A DNA stretch of 64,000 bases from Thermoanaerobaculales bacterium (GTDB lineage Bacteria > Acidobacteriota > Thermoanaerobaculia > Thermoanaerobaculales > Sulfomarinibacteraceae). The stretch is from positions 7,754-71,753 of the forward strand of contig JAIOSJ010000129.1 of assembly GCA_021107705.1 (NCBI GenBank), given 5' to 3'. The notes under the pieces were generated by a model that saw only the letters and a program-made list of their open reading frames with translations, made no database searches and had not been told where the DNA came from. A program made the position numbers and the translations under genes. Positions 4,154 to 63,399 of this stretch are shown piece by piece. Numbering within the stretch: position 1 is the stretch's first letter; every line of letters starts with the position of its first letter.

Positions 4154-5725
4154 GTGGTAGAATTACCCGCGATTGCTATGTTGGAGCTTCTCTTCGCCGC
4201 AGGACTTCTAGGGGCCGGTCATCCACCGGCCCCGTGCGACTTGGAGTGTGAGCAGCAGGCGGTGGTACGACTCCTTGATCAGGGAGAGACCCGATCCGCG
4301 GTGGAGCGTTTGAACGATGCCCGGCGTCGTTTTCCCGATGATCGCCGGCTCGTACTGCTGCTCACGCGGTCATACCTTCTGGAGAACAACCTCTTTTGGG
4401 CCGAGCGCACCCTCCGTGAGGCCGTAACGCGGTGGCCGAACGATCCCGAGCTGCGCGCGTGGCTCGCCGCGGTCCATCTGCGCCAGGGAGATCCCGAGCT
4501 GGTGATCGCCGACCTGGATCCGGAGCATGAACCGACCGACGATCCGCATCGGGCACGCTGGCGGCTGCTCGCGGTATCGCGGGCCCGACTGGCCGACGAC
4601 GCCACCGAGGCCGGCACCTTGCTGGCCCAGATCACCGAAGAAGACGTGCTCTACCCCGAGGACCGGCGCCTGTGGGCCTCGCTCAAATCGAGTTCCGACC
4701 CCTGGTGGAGCGAGTCCATCACGGGAACCCTGGAAATCGGAGCAGGCCGAACCTCCAACGCCCTAGCCGGCTCGCCGACCGATCCCGGAATGTCCGGCGG
4801 TCCCAGTGGACTCATACCGCTCAAACTCCGCAGTCGTTTCGCACCACCTACCGGCACATCCCTGAAACCAGCCATTGATCTCGAGGTGCTGGCCACCAGT
4901 CTTCTGGAGGATGCCTACAGCGAGCTGAGTTCACTACAGGGAGGACTTCGACTCGGCGCTATGGTCCTCGACGGTGAGCGCCGTTGGACTTTCGGTTACC
5001 GAGCCGAAGTACTCTGGCTCGACCAGGATTCGCCTTTGTATTCCGAGGCCCATCGTGCCGAGTTCGAGCTCGAGTGGGCCGACGGTCAGGTCGTCTTCCT
5101 GGGGGGAGGGCGTCGAGTGTATAGCGACGAACGGCGCACCCGCTGGGAGGGTGAAATCGGTGTCGGGGGCCCGCTGCGCCTCACTGCCGGAGTGCCACTG
5201 CTGGCTGGCGCCACCCTTCGTCTCGCCAACGCCCAGTCGACGGCCTACGATCAATTCGGCATCTCGGCCGCCGCCTCGGCGACCGTGCCGCTCGGACGTC
5301 GAAGCTCCCTCCGCGTCGCGCTGTCCGGAGTCTGGGATGACTACCCGAACTCGGGCGGAGAAGAAGGTCGCCTTGTTTTCGGTACCGAGGAGAAACGCCG
5401 CGATCTTCTCGGTCGGGTTGGGCTCACCCTCTGGACGCCCGCATGGCGAAACCTACGTCCGGGCTTTGAGGTTCGCTACACGAGACGCGAGTCCACCGCC
5501 GACGAAACTCCCGGGTTCGACTTCAGCTACCGCGAGTGGCGCGCCATTGCCTGGCTGCGATGGACATTCAAAGCAGACCCGTGGGCGCCGCGGACCGTCG
5601 ATGACGATCACGTGCCCTTGGACTGGGGTCTCGAGAGCAGCGGCGGCATGGACCAGGAGCGGATTCTCGACCTGCTGCGGGGCGACGAGGAGCTGCGCCG
5701 CGGTTCGAGCTGCGGGGTTAAATGA
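4154..5725 (+). CDS. Hypothetical envelope protein: N-terminal TPR-like repeats plus C-terminal beta-strand-rich (outer-membrane barrel-like) region
   Basis: 523-aa ORF with a GTG start; ATG 4178 is an alternative. The N-terminal half has TPR-like helices (LNDARRRFPDDRRLVLLLTRSYLLENNLFWAERTLREAV). The C-terminal half has alternating-hydrophobic strands ending ...YREWRAIAWLRWTF, followed by a ~55-aa tail. Its stop overlaps the next start (ATGA). Confidence 0.55.
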   Translation: MVELPAIAMLELLFAAGLLGAGHPPAPCDLECEQQAVVRLLDQGETRSAVERLNDARRRFPDDRRLVLLLTRSYLLENNLFWAERTLREAVTRWPNDPELRAWLAAVHLRQGDPELVIADLDPEHEPTDDPHRARWRLLAVSRARLADDATEAGTLLAQITEEDVLYPEDRRLWASLKSSSDPWWSESITGTLEIGAGRTSNALAGSPTDPGMSGGPSGLIPLKLRSRFAPPTGTSLKPAIDLEVLATSLLEDAYSELSSLQGGLRLGAMVLDGERRWTFGYRAEVLWLDQDSPLYSEAHRAEFELEWADGQVVFLGGGRRVYSDERRTRWEGEIGVGGPLRLTAGVPLLAGATLRLANAQSTAYDQFGISAAASATVPLGRRSSLRVALSGVWDDYPNSGGEEGRLVFGTEEKRRDLLGRVGLTLWTPAWRNLRPGFEVRYTRRESTADETPGFDFSYREWRAIAWLRWTFKADPWAPRTVDDDHVPLDWGLESSGGMDQERILDLLRGDEELRRGSSCGVK

Positions 5726-6270
5726 TGGCCGTCGTAGAGACAGCTCAAGGTTCAAGGCAGCCGATGCCGGGCCTCCTCCGGATTCTCCTGGAGGCGATCG
5801 CGGTGAGCGCGGTCGCCGTGGTGATCTCCCTGCTGTTCAACGCCCTACGCCCCGCAGGTCTGGAGTTGATCGCACGGACCCCGTACCAGATCCTGGTTCC
5901 GTGTCCAGAGCCGGGCGGGCCGGTCCAGGTCGTGCAGCCGACCAACCCCTGGATCCTCTCGGCACGCACCTTTCTCGTCGATGCCCGTTCGCCGCAGGAG
6001 TTCGACCTTTGGCACCTTCCAAAGGCGGTCAACCTGCCATATGACTGGTTGGATCCGGTGCCCGAGGACCGCCTCCTCGAGCTTGCGAAAAGCATCGCCG
6101 CCAGCGGCGCCAATCGGGTGGCGGTATACGGCGACGGCGGCCGGCCGGACAGTGGCGAGCACCTCGGCAAGGAGATCTCGGGACGCGGCATCAAGAACGT
6201 GTTCTTCGTGGCGGGCGGGGCGCCGACCATGTTAGCCCGACCTTCTCACCACAGGTCGGAGGAGCGATGA
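5722..6270 (+). CDS. Membrane-anchored rhodanese-homology domain protein, apparently lacking the catalytic Cys
   Basis: 182 aa with one N-terminal TM (LLRILLEAIAVSAVAVVISLLF). The rhodanese-like part reads FLVDARSPQEFDLWHLPKAVNLPY...RVAVYGDGGRPDSGEHLGKEISGRGIKNVFFVAGG. The position normally occupied by Cys in the C-X-X-G-X-R loop reads G (VYGDGGR). Confidence 0.65.
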   Translation: MMAVVETAQGSRQPMPGLLRILLEAIAVSAVAVVISLLFNALRPAGLELIARTPYQILVPCPEPGGPVQVVQPTNPWILSARTFLVDARSPQEFDLWHLPKAVNLPYDWLDPVPEDRLLELAKSIAASGANRVAVYGDGGRPDSGEHLGKEISGRGIKNVFFVAGGAPTMLARPSHHRSEER

Positions 6271-8704: not shown

Positions 8705-10330
8705 ATGGACGGGTTTGCCGCCCACGATGCTCCCGGATGGGCTGCCCTGGCGGAGGGATTGATCCTCCTCACCACAGCCCTTGGCTTGGGCGCGGCGACC
8801 TCGCGCCTGCGTCTCGGGCCGACCGTCGGCTACATCGCGGCCGGCGCCCTGCTCGGACCGCACGGCCTTCGCCTGCTTGGCGACGCACCCGGTCTGCATT
8901 CGGTCACCGAACTCGGGGTCACGCTGCTCCTGTTCGCCATCGGACTCGAGTTCCCCTGGCGCGTGCTGCGCAGCCTGGGTCGAGGGCCACTCCTTGGCGG
9001 CGGCGGCCAAATCCTCCTCACCGCCCTTGTCGGGTTGGGGATCTCCCGCGCTGTCGGAGCGTCCACCGGCACTGCTCTGGCTGTGGGCGCGGTGCTGGCA
9101 CTGTCGAGCACCGCCTCAGTTCTGCGCACCCTGAGCGGCCGAACCGAAACCGACACCGTGCACGGACGACTGACGGTGTCAGTGCTCATCCTCCAGGACC
9201 TGGCCCTCGTCCCCTTGCTCCTTCTGGTCGCGGCCATGACCCATTCCGGCTCACCGAGCGCGATCACACTGGCGATAGGCTTGTCGATCGGCCTCACACT
9301 GGTCCTCGCCGCAGTCCTGATGATCTTGGCAAAGGTGGTCATGCCTCGGGTGCTCACCGCCACCTCGAGCCTCGCTCACCGGGAACTCGCCATTCTCCTC
9401 GCCCTGGTCACCGCCACCGGCGCCGCCTACTTCGCCCACCGCCTTGGACTGTCGCCCGCGATGGGCAGCTTTCTCGCCGGCATGCTGCTGGCCGACTCCC
9501 CCTTCGCGCTGCAGTTGCGCTCCGACGTCGAGGCACTCAAGGCGATCTTTCTGGCCCTGTTCTTCGTTTCCATCGGTTTCCTGTTCAACGGCGCCTGGGT
9601 GGTGCAGCACCCGGTCCAGGTGGCCCTGGCTACCGCCGGGGTGCTCCTGTTCAAGACCCTGACCGCATCAGCCGCCTTGATCGTTTTTGGTGCACCGCGT
9701 CGGGCTGCGTTCGCGGCAGGGATCTGTCTCGCCCAGATCGGCGAGTTCTCATACGTCCTGGCCCTACAGGCAAGCAGTTTCGGACTCTTCTCCCCCGACA
9801 CCATGGCCCTGATCGTGGCTGCCCTGGTCCTGACCCTGGCCGCCACTCCTCTCCTCGTTGCCTTGGGGGCCCGTGTCTCCCTGCCCACCGCGACCGTCGC
9901 CAGCAGTGACACCGCGCAGAACGCATCGACTCCTCACCGGGTCGTGGTGATCGGCTTCGGCCCAGTTGGTGCAGCCACAGCCGCCGAGGCCCTTCGATCG
10001 GGGCGAGAGATCACGGTCATCGAGCTCAACCCGCGACTTGTCGGCCAGGCCCGCAGCGAGGGATTCGAGGTCCACCTCGGCGACGCCACCCACCCGGAGG
10101 TTCTACGACACGCCCACGTCGGTGATGCGGCCGCGGTGGCAGTGACGGTCCCCGACCACCGTGCCGCCGCCCTTATCATCCAACTGGTCCGCATCCTCGC
10201 CCCCGAGGCGCTGGTGGTCGCCCGGTCCCGTTACCACCTCCATACCACCGGCCTGCACAACGCCGGCGCCGATCACGTGGTGGACGAGGAGCAGGAGGTG
10301 GGGGCGATGCTCGCCCGGCTGGGCCTCTAA
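8705..10330 (+). CDS. CPA2-family monovalent cation:proton antiporter with C-terminal RCK/TrkA-N domain (KefB/KefC-like)
   Basis: 541 aa and multi-TM, with LGPTVGYIAAGALLGPHGL, ELGVTLLLFAIGLEF and ILQDLALVPLL. The C-terminal Rossmann part reads VVVIGFGPVGAATAAEAL...VARSRY. Confidence 0.85.
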   Translation: MDGFAAHDAPGWAALAEGLILLTTALGLGAATSRLRLGPTVGYIAAGALLGPHGLRLLGDAPGLHSVTELGVTLLLFAIGLEFPWRVLRSLGRGPLLGGGGQILLTALVGLGISRAVGASTGTALAVGAVLALSSTASVLRTLSGRTETDTVHGRLTVSVLILQDLALVPLLLLVAAMTHSGSPSAITLAIGLSIGLTLVLAAVLMILAKVVMPRVLTATSSLAHRELAILLALVTATGAAYFAHRLGLSPAMGSFLAGMLLADSPFALQLRSDVEALKAIFLALFFVSIGFLFNGAWVVQHPVQVALATAGVLLFKTLTASAALIVFGAPRRAAFAAGICLAQIGEFSYVLALQASSFGLFSPDTMALIVAALVLTLAATPLLVALGARVSLPTATVASSDTAQNASTPHRVVVIGFGPVGAATAAEALRSGREITVIELNPRLVGQARSEGFEVHLGDATHPEVLRHAHVGDAAAVAVTVPDHRAAALIIQLVRILAPEALVVARSRYHLHTTGLHNAGADHVVDEEQEVGAMLARLGL

Positions 10331-10389
10331 CCTACTTCTCACTGCACCTTTCCGGTTTCAGGGCTGACATCGGTGAGAAGTGCGGGCTA
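10328..10389. mobile_element. MITE copy a (minimal ~58-bp form: two terminal inverted repeats plus a short loop), TA-flanked
   Basis: The sequence is TA-ACCTACTTCTCAC...GGTGAGAAGTGCGGGC-TA. The right end matches the family TIR and the left end is degenerate. The left TA is part of the antiporter TAA stop (10328-10330). The element sits between convergent genes. Confidence 0.6.
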
Positions 10390-10409
10390 AAGATCTTGTT
10401 GGGGCATCT

Positions 10410-11954: not shown

Positions 11955-12013
11955 CCGGGTAAGACCTCCAGTAGATGAATCCGTAGATCTTAACAGCTAC
12001 CTGCTGCGTATTC

Positions 12014-12050
12014 CGCGCCGCAGCTGATCATTGGTGAAAAATGCGGGTTA
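12014..12050. mobile_element. MITE copy b: solo right end (truncated copy)
   Basis: CCGCAGCTGATCATTGGTGAAAAATGCGGGT-TA matches the right sub-terminal block and TIR of copies c, d and e. I found no convincing left TIR. The terminal T plus TA forms the TAA stop (12048-12050) of the adjacent minus-strand gene. Confidence 0.5.
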
Positions 12051-13418
12051 GCGTCCCAGCAAAAAGACGGCGTCTCCGGTGATGCCATCGACGCGGCTTG
12101 CGTACACCAGCACGTTCCGATCCAGGAAGCTTCCTCCTTCAGACGTAGCCAATGCCGATACCCTCAAGACTATTTGCTCATGATCCGCAATCTCGGGAAT
12201 GAGCGTTTCAATTCTGTTGACCTGGTGGAATCCGAAAGGAGGCACTGTGACCGTCCCGCTACCAAAAATAGTCGATCCGGTCGGTGACCACGCCCTGATG
12301 GTAACCTCGACCTCTGATGGTCCGAGATTTGCGATGCCCAGGTTGGTTCTGTTATTGGCGTCGGTCGCCACCAGGTGAAGCGTTCTTTGCCAGGAGTCCC
12401 AGACCCGCACGACATCATCCCGAAGCATCCGGTCTTCCTCCACCAGGGGAACAGTTTGGCCGAAGACGCCCTCCCCTCCAACGTTAGCGACGCGTGCGGT
12501 GACCGCTGCCTTCGGGGCCGTGGTTAATACCTCAAGCCACCCCTTTGTCTCGTGGATCCCGAAAAGCTCGGGGAGCACATCGTCGTAACGCACACTCTGA
12601 CTGCGATCTAGGTCGAGTCGCCGGACGGTGAAGTTCACCGAACCGTCGTGCCCACTCTCGGTGAAATAGAGCCAGATGGTGGTCGGTTCATCCTGGGAGG
12701 CCGTGACCTCGAGTTCGGTGACCCAGCGGGTTTCGGCATCACCGGCCAAAGAGGCCACCACTGGGATGCACCGCTTGATGTGGCGTTTGACGGGGCGCTG
12801 GTCGATGGGGTCCGGGATGTCCGCATCCACTTCGAGCCGGACATCCCGAATGTAGAAGAAGTCCTCCCGGTCGTCTCCGTCGTTGGCCTCGGTAAGCTGG
12901 GCGCGGATCACTACCCGGCCCTGGTCGCTGCTGTACTGGCCTGACGGGATATTCGGGGCGATCTGGGAGGTCAGATCGGCCGACAGCTCCGAGCCCCTTT
13001 CGATGGATCCGTCCATCGCGGTCTCTTGATTGAGGTCTTCCGTGGCCCAGCCGCCATGAGGATCTACCGACGGGCACCCCATGAGGCCGATCACCCTTCC
13101 CGCCACAACCGGTCCGAGCGCGCTGGGGTCGGCGTAGACAGTATCGATGCCAATACGGAGGACCGCCGACGTGATTTGAGATCCCGGCGGAAGGAACGAC
13201 AGATCGAAGCCGAAGACGGCCACGACATATTGGTTTTGCGTGGAGTCGCCGATAAACGGCACAACGCCCTCGAAGCGCGGAACGCCGTCTTCCGTCACGC
13301 GGATGTGGCCGATTTGACTTGGAGTTACCCGGAACGATTCCGCCCCGGCGGTTTGGCTCCCGATCAGGAAAGCGAGGGCGAGACCTAACAAACAGGTGGT
13401 GACAGGCCGGAATTGCAT
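12048..13418 (-). CDS. Secreted hypothetical protein; its C-terminal ~230 aa are paralogous to the C-terminus of ORF 38403..40673
   Basis: 456 aa with a signal peptide (LLGLALAFLIGSQTAGA). The C-terminal region starts CIPVVASLAGDAETRWVTELEVT and ends ...YASRVDGITGDAVFLLGR. Compare FWIPVASHAPGAQGSAWRTDLGLL ... YGSVVDNITNDPTTMAVVR in the other protein. Confidence 0.6.
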   Translation of the reverse strand: MQFRPVTTCLLGLALAFLIGSQTAGAESFRVTPSQIGHIRVTEDGVPRFEGVVPFIGDSTQNQYVVAVFGFDLSFLPPGSQITSAVLRIGIDTVYADPSALGPVVAGRVIGLMGCPSVDPHGGWATEDLNQETAMDGSIERGSELSADLTSQIAPNIPSGQYSSDQGRVVIRAQLTEANDGDDREDFFYIRDVRLEVDADIPDPIDQRPVKRHIKRCIPVVASLAGDAETRWVTELEVTASQDEPTTIWLYFTESGHDGSVNFTVRRLDLDRSQSVRYDDVLPELFGIHETKGWLEVLTTAPKAAVTARVANVGGEGVFGQTVPLVEEDRMLRDDVVRVWDSWQRTLHLVATDANNRTNLGIANLGPSEVEVTIRAWSPTGSTIFGSGTVTVPPFGFHQVNRIETLIPEIADHEQIVLRVSALATSEGGSFLDRNVLVYASRVDGITGDAVFLLGR

Positions 13419-22635: not shown

Positions 22636-22848
22636 ATGGCACGAAACTCCGGAGCATACAAGTTCGAGAAGCGACGTAAAGAACTGGAAAAAAAGAAGAA
22701 AAAAGAACAGAAGAGGTTGGCGAGACAGGCTCGCAAGGAAGGTGATGAGGGCGCCGACGAACAGGCTGAGGGCGCCGACGAACAGGCTGAGGGCGCCGAC
22801 GAACAGGCTGAGGGCGCCGACGAGGGCGTCACAGACAGCGAAGACTGA
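22636..22848 (+). CDS. Small (70-aa) Lys/Glu-rich protein with an acidic tandem-repeat tail
   Basis: GGAGGTG lies 8 nt before ATG 22636. The protein is MARNSGAYKFEKRRKELEKKKKKEQKRLARQARKEGDEGADEQAEGADEQAEGADEQAEGADEGVTDSED. I recognise no family. Confidence 0.5.
   Translation: MARNSGAYKFEKRRKELEKKKKKEQKRLARQARKEGDEGADEQAEGADEQAEGADEQAEGADEGVTDSED
22747..22824 (+). repeat. Perfect 21-bp tandem repeat, 3 full copies plus a partial one (GAGGGCGCCGACGAACAGGCT)
   Basis: Read directly at 22747-22767, 22768-22788 and 22789-22809, then 15 nt of a fourth copy. It encodes (EGADEQA)x3 in the small ORF. Confidence 0.9.
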
Positions 22849-22865: not shown

Positions 22866-23047
22866 TAACCCGACTTTCTCACCAATCTTCTACTGCGGTC
22901 GGGGATGCACCGTACCCAGCGACGTTTTCTCGCTTCGGGATGCTCGACGGACTGTCGAGTACGACTCCGCGTCCCTCAGGTCGAAAACACCACTGAGCAC
23001 AGCACCTCCCCGCCCTCGCGACGAACCTTGGTGAGAAGTGCAGGCTA
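22866..23047 (-). mobile_element. MITE copy c (182 bp including flanking TA), inverted relative to copy d
   Basis: The sequence is TA-ACCCGACTTTCTCACCAA...TTGGTGAGAAGTGCAGGC-TA. Its reverse complement aligns to copy d over the full length with 15 substitutions and no indel (hand alignment). Confidence 0.8.
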
Positions 23048-24663: not shown

Positions 24664-24784
24664 TCGTGCTCTATGATTGGCCAATGTGGTTGATCTCCGT
24701 GTCGGTGGGCAGGCGGCCCACCCCAATTTGACTACAGGAGCCGACCTCTCGGAGGCAGCGGTTCCGGGAGACGAGAAGAGAGAT

Positions 24785-25138
<354 letters not shown>

Positions 25139-25157
25139 TCGGGTTTCCCGCTTACTC

Positions 25158-27365: not shown

Positions 27366-27438
27366 CAAGCTCCATCCGCCGTCATGAGCGACGACAAATC
27401 CACTGTAGCAGGAACGGGAACGGCCAGGCTCCGAACAT

Positions 27439-27548
27439 CGACCTCTTTGACCCTTTTGACCTTTTCGATTTCATCGACCCTCAAAGACTTCTATTGATTC
27501 ATTTTTGCGCCTTTTTGTGGCTATTTCTTCGATCCGTGCAAAGGCTAA
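27439..27548 (+). repeat. T-tract/TTGACC array, copy B1 (AT-rich intergenic repeat family)
   Basis: CGACCTCTTTGACCCTTTTGACCTTTTCGATTTC...TTCATTTTTGCGCCTTTTTGTGGCTATTTCTTCGATCCGTGCAAAGGCTA shares a ~50-nt core with 34801-34850 and 43070-43126. It lies in the divergent region between the protease and nuclease genes. Confidence 0.75.
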
Positions 27549-29846: not shown

Positions 29847-29957
29847 AAGAGCCGAATATATAGGCGCAAAGATAAATCCAATACGGGCAACGAGTCGCTG
29901 TGCCTGTGTTTTGGAGCGAGAGCCAAGCTATCGCGCTTGAGTTCAGGTTTCCTGCGT

Positions 29958-29990
29958 CTTCGACCTGTTTGACCCTTTTGACCTTTATAA
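29958..29990 (+). repeat. TTGACC array fragment, copy B4, immediately left of MITE d
   Basis: CTTCGACCTGTTTGACCCTTTTGACCTTTATAACC closely matches the left part of B1 (CGACCTCTTTGACCCTTTTGACCTTTT). Confidence 0.6.
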
Positions 29991-30002
29991 CCCTAGAGCC
30001 CT

Positions 30003-30184
30003 TAGCCCGCACTTCTCACCAATGTTCGTCGCGAGGGCGGAGAGGTGCTGTGTCCAGTGGTGTTTTCGACCTGAGGGACGCGCAGTCGTACTCGACAGTC
30101 CGTCGAGCATCCCGATGCGAGAAAACGCCGCTGGGCGCAGTGCATCGCCGGCCGCAGTAGAAGATTGGTGAGAAATGCGGGTTA
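30003..30184 (+). mobile_element. MITE copy d (182 bp including flanking TA), reference copy
   Basis: The sequence is TA-GCCCGCACTTCTCACCAA...TTGGTGAGAAATGCGGGT-TA, and the 20-nt ends are inverted repeats with 2 mismatches. The right-end T plus TA is the TAA stop (30182-30184) of the response-regulator gene. Confidence 0.8.
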
Positions 30185-31681
30185 TGCCTCTGCCATGACA
30201 CGCAGGAGGTCTTCCATGCCGGTCATCTGGTCCGTGTGAAGGCGCCAGCGCTTCTCCAACTTCAGGACTTTCTGCGCCCGGACAACCGCCTCGGGGCCTG
30301 ATGCCGCGAGGATGCCCCATTGGGACGTCGGCGCTGTTTCGACCCACTCGAGGACCCATCCCAGCTCGTCGATCCTCTCCGGGTCACCCACCCACACCAT
30401 CACGACGGGATAGACGGCCATCCTGGCTCTGACCTGTTTCAGGGCCACCGGAGACTCCAGAGACGCTACGTGTATTACCAACCCGACGCCAGGCCCCCGA
30501 AGGGCGAGGGTCGCGACCCTCCCTCCCTGCCAGGCTGCCGTCATCGACTCGCCGGAGGCCGCAAGACTCTCCGGCGGCAGGGCCTGTCGGAGCTCGAGGA
30601 AGGCGCCATGCACCGTCGGTTCAACCAAAATCAGAACATGAGGCAACTCCGGGGAGAAGCCACGGCGCTCCACGGCCCTGATCACGGCTTCGACGGCCGA
30701 ACCAAGGCTCTCGCTCGTCCCGCCGTCGGCGTCTTCGGCCGTCCTTTCGATCGTGCCGACATCAACGAAGCCACGGTGCACCATGAATCGAATGGCCAAG
30801 GCTACTTTTTTCGGCGCCCATCGCTCCATCGCTTCCAGACCCCGGATGGAGATGCCGGGGTTGGATCGAATTTCGTCGAACACACCCTCCGTCGGAATCG
30901 AGCCCCATTCCGCCGCCGTGGCCGGAGGTTGATCCTTTCCCGGGCGGATGGAGAGAGAGGCGTGATCGCCAACCTCGGACCACCGTGAGAGTTCGTCGAT
31001 CAGCCAGGCAGCAATGAACATCACCTTCTGGATCTCGATCTCGGAACCTGTTGCACCCGCCGCCGCGGGAGGCCCCTGCCCGTCGAAGCGAAACGTCCCC
31101 CTCTTCAGATCCATCATGGCCAGGATCGCCTCGATGCCCACGAGGCGACCCCATGCGGCCGCCGTCGGCCGACCACCGACCACGACAAGCGTCCCCCTTC
31201 GGTCCCCGGATCCGATTTCCAAGACACCGTGCGTACCGCTGTGCAACAGGCTTTGAATCACCTCGGCGAAGCCCAAGGTTTCCAGGCGTCCCTGGAATTC
31301 GGATCGGTCCGAAAGACGGCCGTCGATCAATCTATTGAGCCGCAGCAGCAATTCTTCCGGATCAAAGGGCTTGCCTATGTATTCATCCGCGCCACCCCGC
31401 AGGCCCTTGACACGGTCTTCGACCTCACCGAGGGAGGAGAGCATCAACACCGGAAGTCTCTTCGTCTCGGGGTTGGCGTGGAGGTCGTCAAGAACCTCGA
31501 ATCCCGAACGGCCCGGCATCATCACGTCCAGGATGACCGCATCGACCTGGTGAGCCGCCGCCAGGTGCGCTGCCTCCTGGGGATTGGCAGTCGCAACGAC
31601 TTCGTGCCCGCCGCCTCTCAGGGTGTACTCCACCATTTTGAGCGTCATCGCATCGTCATCGACGGTCAAGATCACGGCCAT
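30182..31681 (-). CDS. Response regulator: REC domain + DUF4388 domain + uncharacterised C-terminal ~250 aa
   Basis: The REC part reads ILTVDDDAMTLKMVEYTL...DAVILDVMMPGRSGFEVL...PVLMLSSLGE...GADEYIGKPF. The DUF4388-like part reads FQGRLETLGFAEVIQSLLHSGTHGVLEI...GIEAILAMMDLKRGTFRF. Confidence 0.8.
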   Translation of the reverse strand: MAVILTVDDDAMTLKMVEYTLRGGGHEVVATANPQEAAHLAAAHQVDAVILDVMMPGRSGFEVLDDLHANPETKRLPVLMLSSLGEVEDRVKGLRGGADEYIGKPFDPEELLLRLNRLIDGRLSDRSEFQGRLETLGFAEVIQSLLHSGTHGVLEIGSGDRRGTLVVVGGRPTAAAWGRLVGIEAILAMMDLKRGTFRFDGQGPPAAAGATGSEIEIQKVMFIAAWLIDELSRWSEVGDHASLSIRPGKDQPPATAAEWGSIPTEGVFDEIRSNPGISIRGLEAMERWAPKKVALAIRFMVHRGFVDVGTIERTAEDADGGTSESLGSAVEAVIRAVERRGFSPELPHVLILVEPTVHGAFLELRQALPPESLAASGESMTAAWQGGRVATLALRGPGVGLVIHVASLESPVALKQVRARMAVYPVVMVWVGDPERIDELGWVLEWVETAPTSQWGILAASGPEAVVRAQKVLKLEKRWRLHTDQMTGMEDLLRVMAEA

Positions 31682-34800: not shown

Positions 34801-34850
34801 TTCATTTTTGTGCCTTTTTGTGGCTATTCCTGGAGATTTGCAAACAGCTA
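34801..34850 (+). repeat. T-tract repeat core, copy B2
   Basis: The sequence is TTCATTTTTGTGCCTTTTTGTGGCTATTCCTGGAGATTTGCAAACAGCTA. This copy has the same core as B1 and B3 and the same orientation. About 60 nt upstream is CCATCCGCCGTCAATG, which also occurs as CCATCCGCCGTCATG left of B1 (27372-27386). Confidence 0.7.
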
Positions 34851-43020: not shown

Positions 43021-43126
43021 GTCTTGACCTCTTTGATTCTTTGACTCTTTTGACCTTTTTGACCCTATCTTTGTGCCTTTTTGCGCCTTTTTGTGGCTAT
43101 TTCTTGGAGTTTTGCAAAAAGCTATT
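43021..43126 (+). repeat. T-tract/TTGACC array, copy B3 (longest: about 11 phased units)
   Basis: The sequence is GTCTTGACCTCTTTGATTCTTTGACTCTTTTGACCTTTTTGACCCTATCTTTGTGCCTTTTTGCGCCTTTTTGTGGCTATTTCTTGGAGTTTTGCAAAAAGCTATT. T-runs recur roughly every 9-10 nt. It lies between convergent genes and runs into the TAG stop at 43125-43127. Confidence 0.8.
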
Positions 43127-45958
43127 AGGAGACCGGGCTGGCTTCTAGGGCCTCCGCCAAGACCTGCGCAGGATGCAGGACCTCCCGGTCGGCAAGATCC
43201 CTCAATTGGTGGCGACAGGAGGTCCCCGCGGCCACAACCCGAGCGCCGGGAGGCAGGTCGTTGACCTGGTCGATCAGAGGTCGGGCAACCGCCAGAGAGA
43301 GATCCTGATTAGCGGCCATGAGACCGAAGGCGCCCGCCATTCCACAACAGCCGGTATTGAGCCGGCGCGTTTCGAGGTCCGGAACAAACTCGAGTAAACG
43401 CGTGAGCACGGGCGTGTCGGCAAGGGCGTTGGCATGGCAATGGCTGTGGACGGCCGCAACACTTTCGAGGCTACCGAGGGGCAAACGCGACGGGTCGGCA
43501 TCAAGCAGCGTCAGCACAAAATTTTCAAAGAGCACGCACCGTTCCGCCACCTGCGAGGCCCCATCGATGCCGAACTGGCGATACTCGTCGACGAACATTG
43601 ACCAGCATGAGGGTTCCAGGAAGATCACCGGCGCATCACCCATCGCCCGCAAGAGGGCGACGTTGTGTTCACCGAGGTCCCGCGCCTTCTCCAGCAGGCC
43701 GCGGCTGGCCGACGGACGACCGCAGCACTTTCGATCTTCGGCGAGGACGACCTCGAATCCCGCAGCCTCCAGCACCAACACCGCGGCACGACCGATCGCG
43801 GGCTCGTGATAGCGAACCCAGGTGTCATCCCAGAGAATGACCCTTCCCCGCCGTCCCGGTCCCTTCTCGCTCCTACGCCGGAACCACCGATCGAAACGAT
43901 CTCGGTGATAGGGTGGCAGAGAACGCCCCGCTTCCAGACCGAGCACCGCCTGCATCAAAAGCCGGACTGGACGCATACTCAGAACGGCATTGGCGAGCGG
44001 CGCCATGGCGCTGCCCAGCCGACCCAGATAATCACTCGAAGCAATCATCCGATCTGCGAGAGAGGGACCGTGAATCCGATGACGGGCCTGCAATGTCTCG
44101 GCCTTCAAGAGAGCAAGGTCCACACCCGAGGGGCATTCACGCTTGCACGCCTTGCACGAGAGGCAGCCGCCCAGGACCTCCGTCAACTCGGAACTCTCAA
44201 TGCCGCCGTCGAAACAACCCTCCAGGGCCGCACGCAGGATATTCGCCCGCCCCCGGGTCGAGAACAACTCCTCCCCGGTCGCCGCGAAGGTTGGGCACAT
44301 GGTGGGTTCATCCTTGCGGCACCCACCGCAACCGTTGCACTGTTCAAGATTACCGACGAAGCTATGATCCTTCTCGAAAAATGCGGAAATCGGAACGAAA
44401 GCCGGCGCCAACTCCGAACCCGGGCCGAGGCGCAGATCGGCATCGAGCTTCCAACGACCGGTATCGATGATCTTGCCTGGGTTCAAGACGCCGCTCGGGT
44501 CGAAGATTTCCTTGATATCCCCCATCGCCGCCGTGAGGTCAGGACCGAGATGATCCGCCAAAAACTCGGTACGGGCCAGACCGACGCCATGTTCACCGGC
44601 GAGAGACCCGTCGAATTGACGCACCAGATCGGAGACCTGCTCAGCCACCTCACGCAGCCGGGCGACATCTCCACGCGGTGGAGATCGAGGGTAGGTCGCA
44701 CATGCAACAGTCCCGATGCCGCGTGACCGTAGAAGGAAGCCTCGAGGCCGAGCGACTCGAGAATTCCTTCCATGCCGGCAACGTAGGCCGCCAGATCCCG
44801 CGGCCGCACACAGCTGTCCTCGATGATCGTCATCGGCTTGGCCGGACCCACGCAGCTTGTGACCAAGGAGAGGCCCGCCCGACGCAAATGCCACACCAGT
44901 TCCCGCTCGCCCTCGTCGGCACAAATGACGCAGCGCTCACCAATGCCCAAGCCGACCAACTCTGAGAGGCGATCATCGGCCTCGTCGAAGAATTCGACCA
45001 GGAGCAGGCTCTCGCACGGCTTCTCATCCAGCCGCAGAAACGACCGCGCAGCGGCGAAGGCCAGTCGGCCCCGGCTCTGGTCAAAAACCAACCGGTCCAG
45101 ATGTTCCACCGCTGCCGGCTCGAGTGAAACCAACTCCATCATCGCCTGCATCGCATCGGAGACCAATCGAAAGAAAACGACACCGAGGCCGCGACGCCGA
45201 GGCAGCGGCACCACCCGCAGGATCGCTGTGGTGATGATCCCGAGGGTACCCTCACTCCCGGCCATCAGGCCCGCAAGGTCCGAGGGGTCGCTCAAAAACC
45301 GTTGGAAATCGTACCCGGGACGCCTCTTCACCAGATTAGCCGGCAACCGTCTCTCGATCTCCCGGCGATGGCGCCGGACCACCTCTTCGGACTGAGTCCG
45401 CAGACCTTCGAAGCCGTCACGACCCCGACCCACCCATGCCGTCGAACCATCCGCCAGGACGACTTCGAGGGCCTCGACGTGGTCAGCGGTCGTACCGTAC
45501 ACCGGGGCGTGGGCCCCGGAAGAATTGTTCGCGATCATGCCGCCCAGGGTCGCCCGCGACGACGTCGCCACGTCCGGCCCAAACCACAGATCATGGGGTT
45601 CGAGGACCCGATTCAACTCATCCAAGATGACCCCGGCCCCGACCTCGATTGTGCGGCCCTCTGGGTCAAAAGACCTGACCTCCCACAAATGCCTTGCCAG
45701 ATCCACCACCAGACCCTCACCAAGAGCCCCGCCGGTCAATCCGGTTCCGGCGCCCCGCGGCGTGATACCAAGGCCGCTCTGGGCAGCTGCCCGAACCACA
45801 GCGGCACACTTTTCCGGATCGGCTGGAAAGGCCACCGCCCCAGGCGCCACGCGGTAGATCGAGGCATCGGTCGCATACAGCACACGAGTGAGGTCATCGA
45901 AGCGGGTGTCACAGCTGGTTGAGCTGAGAGAACGCTTCTGTGCGGAACTCACCCCCAT
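43125..45958 (-). pseudogene. FAD-linked oxidase (GlcD-like) fused to a (Fe-S) cluster/CCG-domain oxidoreductase (GlcF/GlpC-like), interrupted by one frameshift
   Basis: Track ORFs 44483..45958 (FAD-binding/oxidase part, ...FYGHAASGLLHVRPTLDLHR) and 43125..44924 (...GDVARLREVAEQVSDLVRQFDGSLAGEHGVG, then CNGCGGCRKDEPTMCP and CLSCKACKRECP) join into one protein if 1 nt is restored near 44664-44680. The total span is 2834 nt, one short of a multiple of three. Confidence 0.75.
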
Positions 45959-46021
45959 ATCTCACCATTCCTTGCTGCGGCCCAATGAATATGGGAAGAC
46001 ATGGGGAGATTGTAATGGAAC

Positions 46022-46202
46022 TAGCTCGCACTTCTCACCAACGTCCGAAGCGAAAGGTTCAAGACGCCGTGAGATTCGGTGTTCTCGCAAGATGAGCGAG
46101 AGAAGTAGTACTTGCGGTACGTCGAGCGAGCGAATCGAGAAAGCGCCGAAGATTATGGTGTATTGGGCCTTGCAGCCGGAGATTGATGAGAAATGCGGGC
46201 TA
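46022..46202 (+). mobile_element. MITE copy e (181 bp including flanking TA)
   Basis: The sequence is TA-GCTCGCACTTCTCACCAA...TTGATGAGAAATGCGGGC-TA. The right TA is part of the TAG stop (46200-46202) of the DUF2752-like gene. The element lies 64 nt upstream of the FAD/Fe-S gene start. Confidence 0.75.
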
Positions 46203-46703
46203 GATACCCGCCAAAACAAAACCCCAGTTCACGAAGAGGGCCAAGGCGAGCAGGGCGAGGCTACGATCAAGCCATTTCCCGTGACGATCTATCAATGACC
46301 GGAAAGACCTCAGCTGGAGCCAGGCCGCGTGGCGCAGGACCTGCAGTGCCACAAAGAGCATCACGACCCAGCCGAGTCGGTGATAGGACAAACTCTCGCC
46401 GAAGGCGCCACGACCGAGAGCGATCCACGAGCGGGTCAGACCACAACCCGGACATGGCGTTCCCGTAGCCCGGCGGAATGCGCATGCCACGGGAAAGCCG
46501 TCCTTATGAGAAGCAGGCATCAATGGCTCAAATACACCCAGAAACAGGGCAGCCGCCAAAGCGCCGGAGCACAGAAAAAACAAAAGGCGGTGGGTGGAGG
46601 CATGAACCTCTTCACCGCCCAATTCTTGATTAGCCAAAGGCCGGTTTGACTTCCTTGTTGAGCAGAACGACCAACGCCCAGATCCCGAAAGGGATACCGA
46701 CAC
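46200..46703 (-). CDS. DUF2752-like membrane protein (CPGCGLTR motif); start uncertain
   Basis: The protein reads ...LLFFLCSGALAAALFLGVF...ACAFRRATGTPCPGCGLTRSWIAL...GWVVMLFVALQVL. The 5' part of the track ORF overlaps the upstream gene, so the true start is probably internal (for example TTG 46622). Confidence 0.6.
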   Translation of the reverse strand: MSVSLSGSGRWSFCSTRKSNRPLANQELGGEEVHASTHRLLFFLCSGALAAALFLGVFEPLMPASHKDGFPVACAFRRATGTPCPGCGLTRSWIALGRGAFGESLSYHRLGWVVMLFVALQVLRHAAWLQLRSFRSLIDRHGKWLDRSLALLALALFVNWGFVLAGI

Positions 46704-47584: not shown

Positions 47585-48574
47585 TCACCGCCGTTTCGAG
47601 GATCCGGACGAACGAGAGGGCGTGGAAGAACGGCCCGACGAAGAGGATCGGCCGCCTCCGGAGGACGATCTCGCCGACGGTGAAGACCGACCGCTTCCGG
47701 AGGACGAGTTCGCCGACGGGGAAGACCGACCACTACCGGAGGACGAACTCGCCGACGAAGACGAGCGCGACGGTGAGGAGGCATTCGGCGCGCTCCCCCT
47801 TGAAGGCGTTGTCGATGTTCTCCCAGCCGAAGCCGACGGGCGGGATGAGGTGGCCCGCGGGCTCCCGGAGCTGGTCACACTCGGTCGCGATGGATAAGAA
47901 CCACGGCTCACCGCGCCCGATCTTCCGGTAGCCGACCCCACCGATCTCGGGATCACAATCGGCGCACGGCTTGATGAAGAGCTGGTTGAGGGAGTAATCG
48001 GCGTGCGCCCGGATCCGGATCCGACCATCGACCGCGAACTCGGTGCTGTCCGGCTTCCGGTGCTCGGCGCTGCACGACCAAGAACCGGAGAGCGGCTCGT
48101 GCCGGCCGGTGCGAGCGACCTGCCCGAAGACGGCGCCGTTGCCCCACCAGAACTCGAGGGAGCGCTCGTCCTCCCACTCGGTGTGCTGCGTGCCCCGGAA
48201 GAACCGACGACCGTGCCGCGGTATCCCGAAGGCGAACGATAATAGTTCGGCGCCGAGGGTCGGCTCGATGCCCGGTTCGAATCACCGGAACTCACATTTC
48301 GACTGAGAGACGGCGCTCCCGATCTTCCGGAAACAGCTGAACTGCGGCTTTCGCTCCCCGGTTCTGCCGGCCTTGAATTCCGCGCAATCATGCTTCCACC
48401 ACTCCGCGGAGTTGCTGCAGCCAGGGCCTCGTCACGACTCAGACCCCCATCACGAGCGAGGACGCGAGAAACGTCGGTATCGCTTCGCCCCTCGACCTCG
48501 CGAAAGACCCTGGTGAACTCACCGGCCGGCGCCGCTCGGCCCGGCCTTTGGGTTCGCAGAGGGCCTGAGGTCAC
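47585..48574 (-). CDS. Ser/Arg/Gly/Pro-rich low-complexity protein with 13-aa tandem repeats (strand assignment tentative)
   Basis: 329-codon ORF whose GTG start overlaps the upstream stop (GTGA). The C-terminus reads SSSGSGRSSPSAN-SSSGSGRSSPSAR-SSSGGGRSSSSGR, encoded by a ~39-bp DNA repeat (47658-47765). The antisense acidic ORF 47622..47897 is much shorter. Confidence 0.4.
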   Translation of the reverse strand: MTSGPLRTQRPGRAAPAGEFTRVFREVEGRSDTDVSRVLARDGGLSRDEALAAATPRSGGSMIARNSRPAEPGSESRSSAVSGRSGAPSLSRNVSSGDSNRASSRPSAPNYYRSPSGYRGTVVGSSGARSTPSGRTSAPSSSGGATAPSSGRSLAPAGTSRSPVLGRAAPSTGSRTAPSSRSMVGSGSGRTPITPSTSSSSSRAPIVIPRSVGSATGRSGAVSRGSYPSRPSVTSSGSPRATSSRPSASAGRTSTTPSRGSAPNASSPSRSSSSASSSSGSGRSSPSANSSSGSGRSSPSARSSSGGGRSSSSGRSSTPSRSSGSSKRR

Positions 48575-56646: not shown

Positions 56647-56879
56647 TAACCCGACCTTCTCACCGGGTTTCGTTGCGAGGGCTGCGAAGGGTAGTTAAAT
56701 GTTCGCTGGCACCGCTTTGCGGCTTGCGTCTCTCCGCCTCCGGCTCCGAGGTCAGGTTTTTTGGAAATTGGGCGACGCAGTCGTAGTTGCACTCCGCCGA
56801 GGAGAATGATTTGCGAAAAGCACGACAGATGGCTGCCATACGCCGCCCGTAGCAGACAACCGGTGAGAAGGCCGGGCTA
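56647..56879 (+). mobile_element. MITE copy f (233 bp including flanking TA; longer variant)
   Basis: The sequence is TA-ACCCGACCTTCTCACC...GGTGAGAAGGCCGGGC-TA. It shares internal blocks with d and g: TTCGTTGCGAGGGC, GACGCAGTCGTAGTT, GCGAAAAGCAC, CCGTAGCAGA. Confidence 0.7.
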
Positions 56880-62104: not shown

Positions 62105-62365
62105 TAGCCCGACCTTCTCACCAGTTTTCGTCGCGAGGGTCGTGAGACGTCGTACACAGCCGGTTCATTCTTGATTTGAACGACACAGTCGTAGTTCACA
62201 CTCCGTAGGGACCTTGAGAATAGCCCAACAGGACGGTCACGCCAACGGCGTGAGACCCCCGGAGGGGTCTGCGTGGGCTGGAGGAGGACACGTCGAGAAA
62301 AGCACGGCTGAGTGCTGCGCAAAGCGGTCCGTCCGCAAGCAGATTATGGTCAGAAATGAGGAATA
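62105..62365 (+). mobile_element. MITE copy g (261 bp, longest variant, degenerate right end)
   Basis: The sequence is TA-GCCCGACCTTCTCACC...AGATTATGGTCAGAAATGAGGAA-TA. The left TIR is intact and the right TIR is decayed. It shares internal blocks TTCGTCGCGAGGGT, GACACAGTCGTAGTT, GTCGAGAAAAGCAC and CCGCAAGCAGATTATGG. Confidence 0.6.
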
Positions 62366-62541
62366 TAGGGGCTCAGACTGGTGAGCTTGCCATCGCTGCA
62401 CGAGGAGGTGTATTCTGGATTTGTCGGTTCTCGACCTCAAAACGTCAGGCCGGGCAGGGGAGTGATTTCGCCGAAGTGGGCCGGTGGGTCCACCCGAAAA
62501 ACAAGGTAGAAGTGACAACAAGGAATGTGGAGGAGACAACA

Positions 62542-63399
62542 ATGAATAGGCAACATGGTTTGGTTTATCTCATCGGTCTTTTCGCGGCATTTGGTCTGTG
62601 CCTCGTTTCGGGCATGGCTGGGGCTGACGACATCGCCTGGGACATGATGGACAGCACAAGTCGGAATGTCGTGAGCTACATGAACGACGCACCTGCGTTC
62701 AGCAGCTCTGGCGACGGGTTCCAGAAATACACAGTGGTGCAGCAGGTGTGTCCGCCCATCCCCGTCCCCAACCTCAATGACATTCCTTACGCCGTGGTCG
62801 ATGACAGCGCCTGCATATATCCCACGGACGGGGGCGGCATCATTGACACCATGACGGATTTCGACGAGTTCTTCGGCGTCTGCGATACCGAAAACAGTCA
62901 AAACTCAGGTCCCGTTACGGCGACCTGGGTCTTCGACATCAGTTCGGCGGGGGACCACGTGCGATTGTCCGTCGATCTGGCTGCGATGGGCGATTTCGAG
63001 GCCGCGGACAGCTTCGTATGGACCTACCAGATCGACGCCGGCGCAGTCACTCCGTGGCTCACGGCGGTTGCCGACGAAGCCGGCGCCATGACATACACCT
63101 TGGCCAACGGAACGGCCGTGGATCTCAATGATCCGCTGGTTGTCGATGGGATTACCCTTTTAAATCGGTTCCAGACCTTTATGACACCCATCGACCGGGG
63201 CTCGCAGCTGACGGTGGTCTTCACGGTTACTACGGATGGCGGCAGCGAGGGCTTCGCGGCCCGAAACCTCTTGGTCAGAGACTTCGCCCCCGGGCAAGAG
63301 GGTGGGCAGCCTATTCCGACCCTGTCGACGGTAGGGATTGCGGCGATGATCCTGATGCTCATGGTCGTGGGTGTGTTCCTGTTCCGACGCCTCCGGTGA
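62542..63399 (+). CDS. Secreted hypothetical protein with IPTL-CTERM-type sorting signal
   Basis: GGAGGAG precedes ATG 62542, and the signal peptide is LVYLIGLFAAFGLCLVSGMAGA. The C-terminus reads QPIPTLSTVGIAAMILMLMVVGVFLFRRLR: an IPTL motif, a TM segment and a basic tail. Confidence 0.65.
   Translation: MNRQHGLVYLIGLFAAFGLCLVSGMAGADDIAWDMMDSTSRNVVSYMNDAPAFSSSGDGFQKYTVVQQVCPPIPVPNLNDIPYAVVDDSACIYPTDGGGIIDTMTDFDEFFGVCDTENSQNSGPVTATWVFDISSAGDHVRLSVDLAAMGDFEAADSFVWTYQIDAGAVTPWLTAVADEAGAMTYTLANGTAVDLNDPLVVDGITLLNRFQTFMTPIDRGSQLTVVFTVTTDGGSEGFAARNLLVRDFAPGQEGGQPIPTLSTVGIAAMILMLMVVGVFLFRRLR

Follow-up and report, generated by a model that had tools for sequence, protein, structure and literature searches.

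The bacterial MITEs described so far include several with features of the repeats studied here. MITEPsy1 of Pseudomonas syringae is ~100 nt long, carries 18-nt TIRs, and uses CTAG or YTAA as a target that is duplicated over 4 nt (PMC3189936). Our repeats resemble it in being bacterial MITEs with a 4-nt CTAG/YTAA duplication, and differ from it in TIR sequence and in parentage, the proposed parent of MITEPsy1 being ISPsy2 and not an IS1380-family element (PMC3189936). Within the portions of that paper matching 'stop codon', no association with gene stop codons is described (PMC3189936). Functional genes of Coxiella burnetii share 1–50 bp at their 3' ends with QMITE1 or QMITE2, and protein length is not grossly altered (PMC5896051). 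These QMITEs supply coding sequence and stops (PMC5896051), whereas the stop at the elements described below is host sequence regenerated by duplication; a cause is also identifiable for the latter, namely a target motif that itself contains the stop.

A more distant comparison is offered by piggyBac, of which the IS1380 transposases are the prokaryotic outgroup (PMC10813416) and for which the abstract-level text of one source describes seamless targeting at TTAA (PMC7351741). In both cases the target is a 4-bp palindrome centred on TA, which is duplicated on insertion. The differences are that piggyBac is eukaryotic and strict for TTAA, in contrast to the CTAG/YTAR preferred by our element. 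A literature search for the TIR strings returned nothing, and no publication describing this MITE or its association with stop codons was found.

Results

The window, the 64-kb stretch of DNA analysed here (~61% GC), comes from a Thermoanaerobaculales (Acidobacteriota) metagenome-assembled genome; one of its proteins is 100% identical to an NCBI entry under that name. It contains a repeat family that was confirmed by profile search (nhmmer) as five full-length copies (c–g) and two partial ones (a and b), belonging to at least three diverged subfamilies (Table 1). The copies are short and non-coding, with lengths of 56–255 bp for a and c–g and no gene predicted inside any of them. Element ends in the window follow the pattern YTAR/CCCGCAyTTCTCACC ... 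GGTGAGAArTGCGGG/YTAR, and the central TA is present at every junction. Four copies (a, b, d and e) sit exactly on TAA or TAG stop codons, as the initial annotation had observed. The genes concerned are real: three have Pfam hits, and the fourth, the conserved hypothetical gene at copy b, has 25 homologues.

At copy a, the stop lies entirely within the left half of a perfect CTAA duplication (10327–10330 and 10387–10390), directly before the element body; the left TIR of this copy is degenerate (CCTACTTCTCAC) and the right one reads GGTGAGAAGTGCGGG. No left TIR is recognisable in copy b. The stop at copy e falls inside the right half of a perfect CTAG duplication (46021–46024 and 46200–46203). 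The remaining full-length copies are not on stops. Copy c, which is 91–92% identical to copy d in inverted orientation, lies between convergent genes at 16 and 29 nt from their stops; copy f separates two divergent genes (SpoU methylase and OmpA-family); and copy g occupies a tandem spacer, 170 nt downstream of the EF-G gene.

Two further features were seen at copy ends. The degenerate right end of copy g (62349–62366) reads GGTCAGAAATGAGGAATA, and the longest ORF at 62356–63399 would start at an ATG inside this end, the gene predictor favouring position 62476. On the reverse strand, a promoter-like match at 46009–46038 places the -35 element (GTGAGA) within the outer TIR of copy e and the -10 element (TACAAT) in the flank; it points to the FAD-oxidase gene starting at 45958 and is a weak match to the consensus (9/12).

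Table 1. Repeats and associated stop codons. Positions refer to the window unless a locus is named.
Feature	Position	Strand	Description	Search result
Copy h, solo TIR	6233-6253	+	in rhodanese gene 5722-6270	
TAA stop at copy a	10328-10330	+	ends Na+/H+ exchanger + TrkA_N gene 8705-10330	
MITE copy a	10331-10386		56 bp, internal deletion	nhmmer E 5.7e-5
MITE copy b	12000-12047		terminal 48 bp of 'end B' left	HMM positions 129-176, E 4.8e-6
TAA stop at copy b	12048-12050 (TTA on +)	-	ends conserved hypothetical gene 12048-13418(-); adjoins copy b end	
Coding tandem repeat	22725-22823		three perfect 21-bp repeats in ORF 22636-22848	
MITE copy c	22869-23044		176 bp; flanks TTAA / CTAA	
Coding tandem repeat	25020-25144		GGC-rich run, 3' end of ORF 24677-25138	
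Second repeat family	27438-27542, 29951-29995, 34805-34845, 43024-43118; L123 ~4515-4570, L124 ~4600-4640			
MITE copy d	30006-30181		176 bp; flanks TTAG (30002-30005), TTAT (30182-30185)	nhmmer E 1e-53
TAA stop at copy d	30182-30184	-	ends response regulator/DUF4388 gene 30182-31681(-); adjoins copy d	
MITE copy e	46025-46199		175 bp, diverged subfamily	nhmmer E 1e-36
TAG stop at copy e	46200-46202 (CTA on +)	-	ends DUF2752 gene 46200-46637 or 46200-46703	
Coding tandem repeat	47635-47767		39-bp repeats	
MITE copy f	56650-56876		227 bp; perfect CTAA duplication	
MITE copy g	62108-62362		255 bp; left flank TTAG; right TIR degenerate	

The window also holds coding tandem repeats and a second intergenic repeat family (Table 1). 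In the latter, 9-bp direct repeats of the TTTGACC type precede TTTTTGCGCCTTTTTGTGGCTATTTCTT, and a similar GTGGCTATTTC motif is found downstream of orthologous response-regulator genes in related genomes. The second family possibly represents a conserved module with a promoter or regulatory role.

The terminus pattern of the MITEs was scanned across a genome collection containing one genome per species, giving at least 120 loci. The matches listed come from Acidobacteriota, Planctomycetota, Verrucomicrobiota, Alpha- and Gammaproteobacteria, Gemmatimonadota, Myxococcota, Nitrospirota, Cyanobacteria and others, with inverted termini spaced 45–609 bp apart and most of them MITE-sized (127–405 bp). 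Also among the matches listed were six loci with termini 1.70–1.77 kb apart (elements of 1698–1768 bp). The 15-bp TIR of these long elements, all from other genomes, is identical to the MITE TIR in four and differs by 1–3 mismatches in two. Scanning of ORFs in two of the six (L054 and L079) revealed one IS1380-family DDE transposase ORF in each. These transposases scored 414 and 389 bits against NF033539, the NCBI IS1380-family equivalog (cut-off 180 bits; E-values 6e-124 and 2e-116), and both matched PF13701 (DDE_Tnp_1_4), to E 1e-151. Models for IS4, IS701 and ISH3 reached only ~16–23 bits against the same two proteins.

Members of the IS1380 family are ~1.5–2 kb in length and generate 4–5 bp duplications (ISfinder), and the long elements fit this description in both size and duplication (4 bp). 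A YTAR target and a 4-bp duplication are also traits of the IS5 family. The two tested transposases do not point to this family: both pass the IS1380 equivalog, and no IS5 model was listed. An Rfam structured RNA was likewise rejected as the identity of the repeats, with 0 covariance-model matches at the gathering score over the whole window.

Two relatives from cultured bacteria (62–64% protein identity), on the plasmids pRle248a of Rhizobium leguminosarum and pKF715A of Pseudomonas putida, bear the annotation IS1380-family transposase. The pKF715A element carries CCCGCATTTCTCACA at both ends, one mismatch from the consensus, and the pRle248a element ends in CCCGAATCTCTCAAA and CCCGCTTTTCTCACA, with 4 and 2 mismatches, respectively; both have CTAG/CTAG flanks. 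These elements share with our repeats a similar 15-bp TIR and the CTAG 4-bp duplication, and have a single DDE transposase ORF within a length of ~1.65–1.77 kb, whereas the window copies are 55–255 bp long, non-coding and divided into at least three diverged subfamilies. Neither an autonomous IS1380 copy nor a transposase gene was found in the 64-kb window. MITE ends A and B could not be matched to the left and right ends of the IS, the subterminal sequences of full-length IS copies being too variable. Because the copies in the window share their TIRs with the 1.70–1.77 kb elements, two of which encode IS1380 transposases, we infer that they are MITEs (~55–255 bp) of an IS1380-family lineage defined by the 15-bp TIR.

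The length of the target-site duplication was deduced from flanking tetranucleotides. For 80 candidate end pairs among the matches listed, the 4-bp flanks were identical in 32 and matched at three of four positions in 27. CTAG was the dominant tetranucleotide, followed by TTAG, CTAA and TTAA. In the 60 pairs with TA on both sides, the two flanks agreed at position 1 in 68% of cases, compared to 55% after permutation (P = 0.005), and at position 4 in 85%, compared to 62% (P < 0.0002). No sequence context past YTAR was seen at the junctions. Within the window, three copies (a, e and f) have a perfect duplication, and the flanks of two others (c and d) agree at three of four positions (Table 1). 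Since positions 1 and 4 co-vary across the element, the duplication is therefore 4 bp long. This contradicts the initial annotation, which had proposed a TA-targeting element and a terminal T or C of that element completing the stop at copies b, d and e; the base in question is the first of the 4-bp target duplication. As reconstructed from sequence, the stop codon is wholly host DNA regenerated by duplication, the element adding no base to it. In a, d and e, the same stop reappears once the element and one duplicate are removed.

A duplication that contains the complete stop should make insertion at this point seamless, leaving the same stop and the same C-terminus. In alignments, the response regulator at copy d shares its end column with 11 of 13 orthologues, and the protein at copy b finishes in line with its two closest orthologues, the others differing from it by no more than one residue. 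The termini of the DUF2752 protein at copy e lie within one residue of those of its best homologue in a representative-library search, and the next homologues gave a similar result. For the gene at copy a, the basis for intactness is the perfect CTAA duplication together with a complete TrkA_N domain. The earlier question of whether a native C-terminus had been clipped, for which alignment with orthologues had been suggested, can be answered on these grounds: the C-termini are intact at b, d and e, which are co-terminal with their orthologues, a has its perfect duplication, and none of the abutted proteins is clipped.

The sole altered C-terminus belongs to a gene carrying copy h, a solo TIR not among the copies listed in the initial annotation. 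TAG plus the 15-mer CCCGACCTTCTCACC (6233–6250) is identical to the left end of copy g over 18 nt. Relative to 11 orthologues, 18 nt (GCCCGACCTTCTCACCAC, 6236–6253, overlapping the TIR match by 15 nt) are inserted into the C-terminal tail of the rhodanese without shifting the frame, adding the residues ARPSHH. Copy h looks like the footprint of an imprecisely deleted copy, and argues that loss of the element is at least sometimes imprecise.

No empty allele was found, all six other contigs encoding the same proteins carrying the MITE. Orthologous loci (72–77% protein identity) have unrelated downstream DNA and, for the response regulator, TGA at the same stop position; their divergence is too great for an empty site to be recognised. 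Copies with 86–95% identity are present at other loci in metagenomes, and from these and the structure of the element we infer mobility in this lineage. Several metagenome contigs assembled from short reads of the same organism end at or within copies: one 27 nt into copy d (L122), another inside copy e (L141), and a third (L138) 3 nt past the right-hand duplication of copy a.

The availability of targets was estimated for the window. TA occurs at 0.45 of expectation, YTAR at 75 sites versus 614 expected (0.12, an eight-fold depletion) and CTAG at 16 versus 226 (0.07). Genes were called with our own codon-usage predictor, with start trimming allowed, and checked against Pfam-supported genes; the null derived in this way carries some error. 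By these calls, 35 YTAR sites are genic and 29 intergenic (six of the latter being MITE-made duplicates), with 10 at stop codons in addition to that of copy d. Before insertion there would have been ~11 stop-codon YTAR sites and 23 other non-genic ones; copies now occupy 4 of the former and 3 of the latter. Stop codons make up about one third of the non-genic YTAR sites of the window. The initial annotation had proposed a genome-wide check for enrichment of copies at stops relative to available sites. Within the window, copies are enriched at stops if every non-genic TA serves as the null (P = 0.005) but not if the null is the non-genic YTAR sites (4 of 7–8 copies; binomial P = 0.16–0.24). With the true target as the null, the window therefore shows no significant excess, and its pattern is explained by the availability of that target. 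The idea that a scarce target funnels copies to gene ends holds with respect to the scarcity and to the large share of tolerated sites that stops provide; the target, however, is YTAR and not TA.

We also examined stop association across the family. Of the 178 YTAR-flanked ends from the loci listed (at least 120) and the window, 37 adjoin an open frame of 150 codons or more, compared to 5.7% of all YTAR sites. A predicted stop is abutted by 30 of 184 ends among the loci listed and the window, where a tetranucleotide-stratified null of non-genic YTAR sites predicts 17.5 (P ~0.003), and by 14 of 56 paired insertions (25%) in the same set. The excess of stops over non-genic YTAR availability is 1.7–2-fold for the loci listed. 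The per-end null share at stops increases from 4.5% to 13% as GC content goes up, in line with the prediction of the funnel idea. Pfam domains were present in 18 of the 20 abutted ORFs tested, often reaching the last few residues. Insertions lie between convergent genes in 17 of 49 cases (35%), compared to 114 of 742 control YTAR sites (15%; P = 0.002), and within the 300 nt that follow a gene, sites at distance 0 are preferred (odds ratio 1.7, P = 0.03). The association with stops is thus general, arising mostly from availability and purifying selection, with a modest residual excess that availability alone does not explain.

At two of the loci, both duplicates serve as stops of convergent genes. 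In L046 (2302–2564) these genes encode, by sequence, a TRAP-type transporter and a hydantoinase-like protein, and L132 (2273–2448) has the same arrangement. Each gene pair probably overlapped in one CTAG-type palindrome before insertion. A metagenome scan for the young subfamily, to which L132 belongs, gave 9 further copies, too few for a lineage-specific statistic. In 'end B' of this subfamily the TIR is followed by AATCTTCTACTGCGG, and abutted genes read into this end 5:1, which suggests an orientation bias relative to the abutted gene, the counts being too small to test.

Discussion

We consider it highly probable that the repeats are IS1380-derived MITEs that duplicate YTAR, and that their positions at stops result from target availability and selection, with the genes left intact. 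In the mechanism suggested by the junctions, a transposase supplied in trans would insert the element into YTAR, with the preference CTAG > TTAG/CTAA > TTAA. Staggered cuts of 4 nt would leave YTAR duplicated on both sides, in a manner resembling piggyBac at TTAA. YTAR holds TAA or TAG on both strands and is therefore excluded in frame from the interior of genes. Insertions in genes or promoters would be lost by selection, and the survivors would occupy the few non-genic YTAR sites, approximately one third of which are stops in this window. As a side effect, the transcript would gain a long hairpin with the stop codon at its base.

Other explanations were weighed against this account. The TA-specific, IS630/Tc1-like MITE implied by the initial annotation, with a 2-bp duplication and a terminal base that completes the stop, would explain the central TA at every junction. 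However, the bases beside TA co-vary between the two sides to give 4-bp duplications, and the two scanned full-length elements with the same TIRs encode transposases of the IS1380 and not the IS630 family, which leaves this identification barely credible. Alternatively, the transposase or its cofactors could actively favour termination sites beyond YTAR, for example through supercoiling between convergent genes. Enrichment in convergent intergenic regions over control YTAR sites and the spike at distance 0 are in line with such targeting, but selection against promoter-side insertions after the event leads to the same pattern. Spacers between divergent (f) and tandem (g) genes hold copies as well, and no extended sequence context is present past YTAR at the junctions; we regard active targeting as very improbable.

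REP elements act as 3'-end mRNA stabilisers or as barriers to transcription or RNases. Copies at stops could be retained for a comparable role of the hairpin, with selection acting beyond availability. In the transcript, the inverted repeat begins immediately after the stop codon, in agreement with the original description of a TIR stem directly 3' of the stop in the mRNA. Predicted transcript folds of copies d and e reach -89 and -71 kcal/mol and exceed shuffled controls in stability (z = -3.7 and -4.7, respectively), with the stop-bearing duplication predicted to pair at the hairpin base. Retention would also accommodate the residual 1.7–2-fold excess at distance 0, and the five young-subfamily cases (b, d, e, L127 and L132) in which the abutted gene reads into 'end B', compared to one for end A. 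Against this, the transcript of copy a folds no better than shuffled sequences (z = -0.5), the repeats have no Rfam match, the orientation count is below significance, and the small excess is equally explained by a general preference for convergent 3' regions. The MITE stem encloses an insert of 100–150 nt and is not followed by a U-tract. A scan for Rho-independent terminators found none in copies a–d, the sole match touching a copy being a 6-bp stem that spans the stop at e, so transcription termination by the hairpin, as once suggested, is unsupported. We judge retention for such a role to be decidedly unlikely.

A broader reading sees stop codons as an intrinsic safe harbour of the IS1380 lineage, in which case the residual ~2-fold excess and the reading of genes into the same end would reflect evolved targeting or retention of the hairpin by the host as a 3'-end RNA element. 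This is conceivable, if on the whole rather doubtful. It builds on gene-end insertion being seamless, even where two convergent genes share one CTAG, as at L046 and L132.

Conclusion

Under the favoured account of target availability and selection, placement at stop codons is an ordinary result of target choice and requires no new mechanism. For annotation, it means that the stop codon is assigned to the gene and not to the repeat. For assembly, these repeats fragment short-read assemblies of this lineage, and for studies of 3' UTRs, many mRNAs in these genomes gain a long hairpin beginning at the stop. About one quarter of the paired insertions of this family, in many phyla among the loci listed, are on stops. 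The rule that emerges is that a stop-containing target motif, duplicated on insertion, leads elements to pile up on stops in GC-rich, gene-dense genomes while the proteins remain undamaged.
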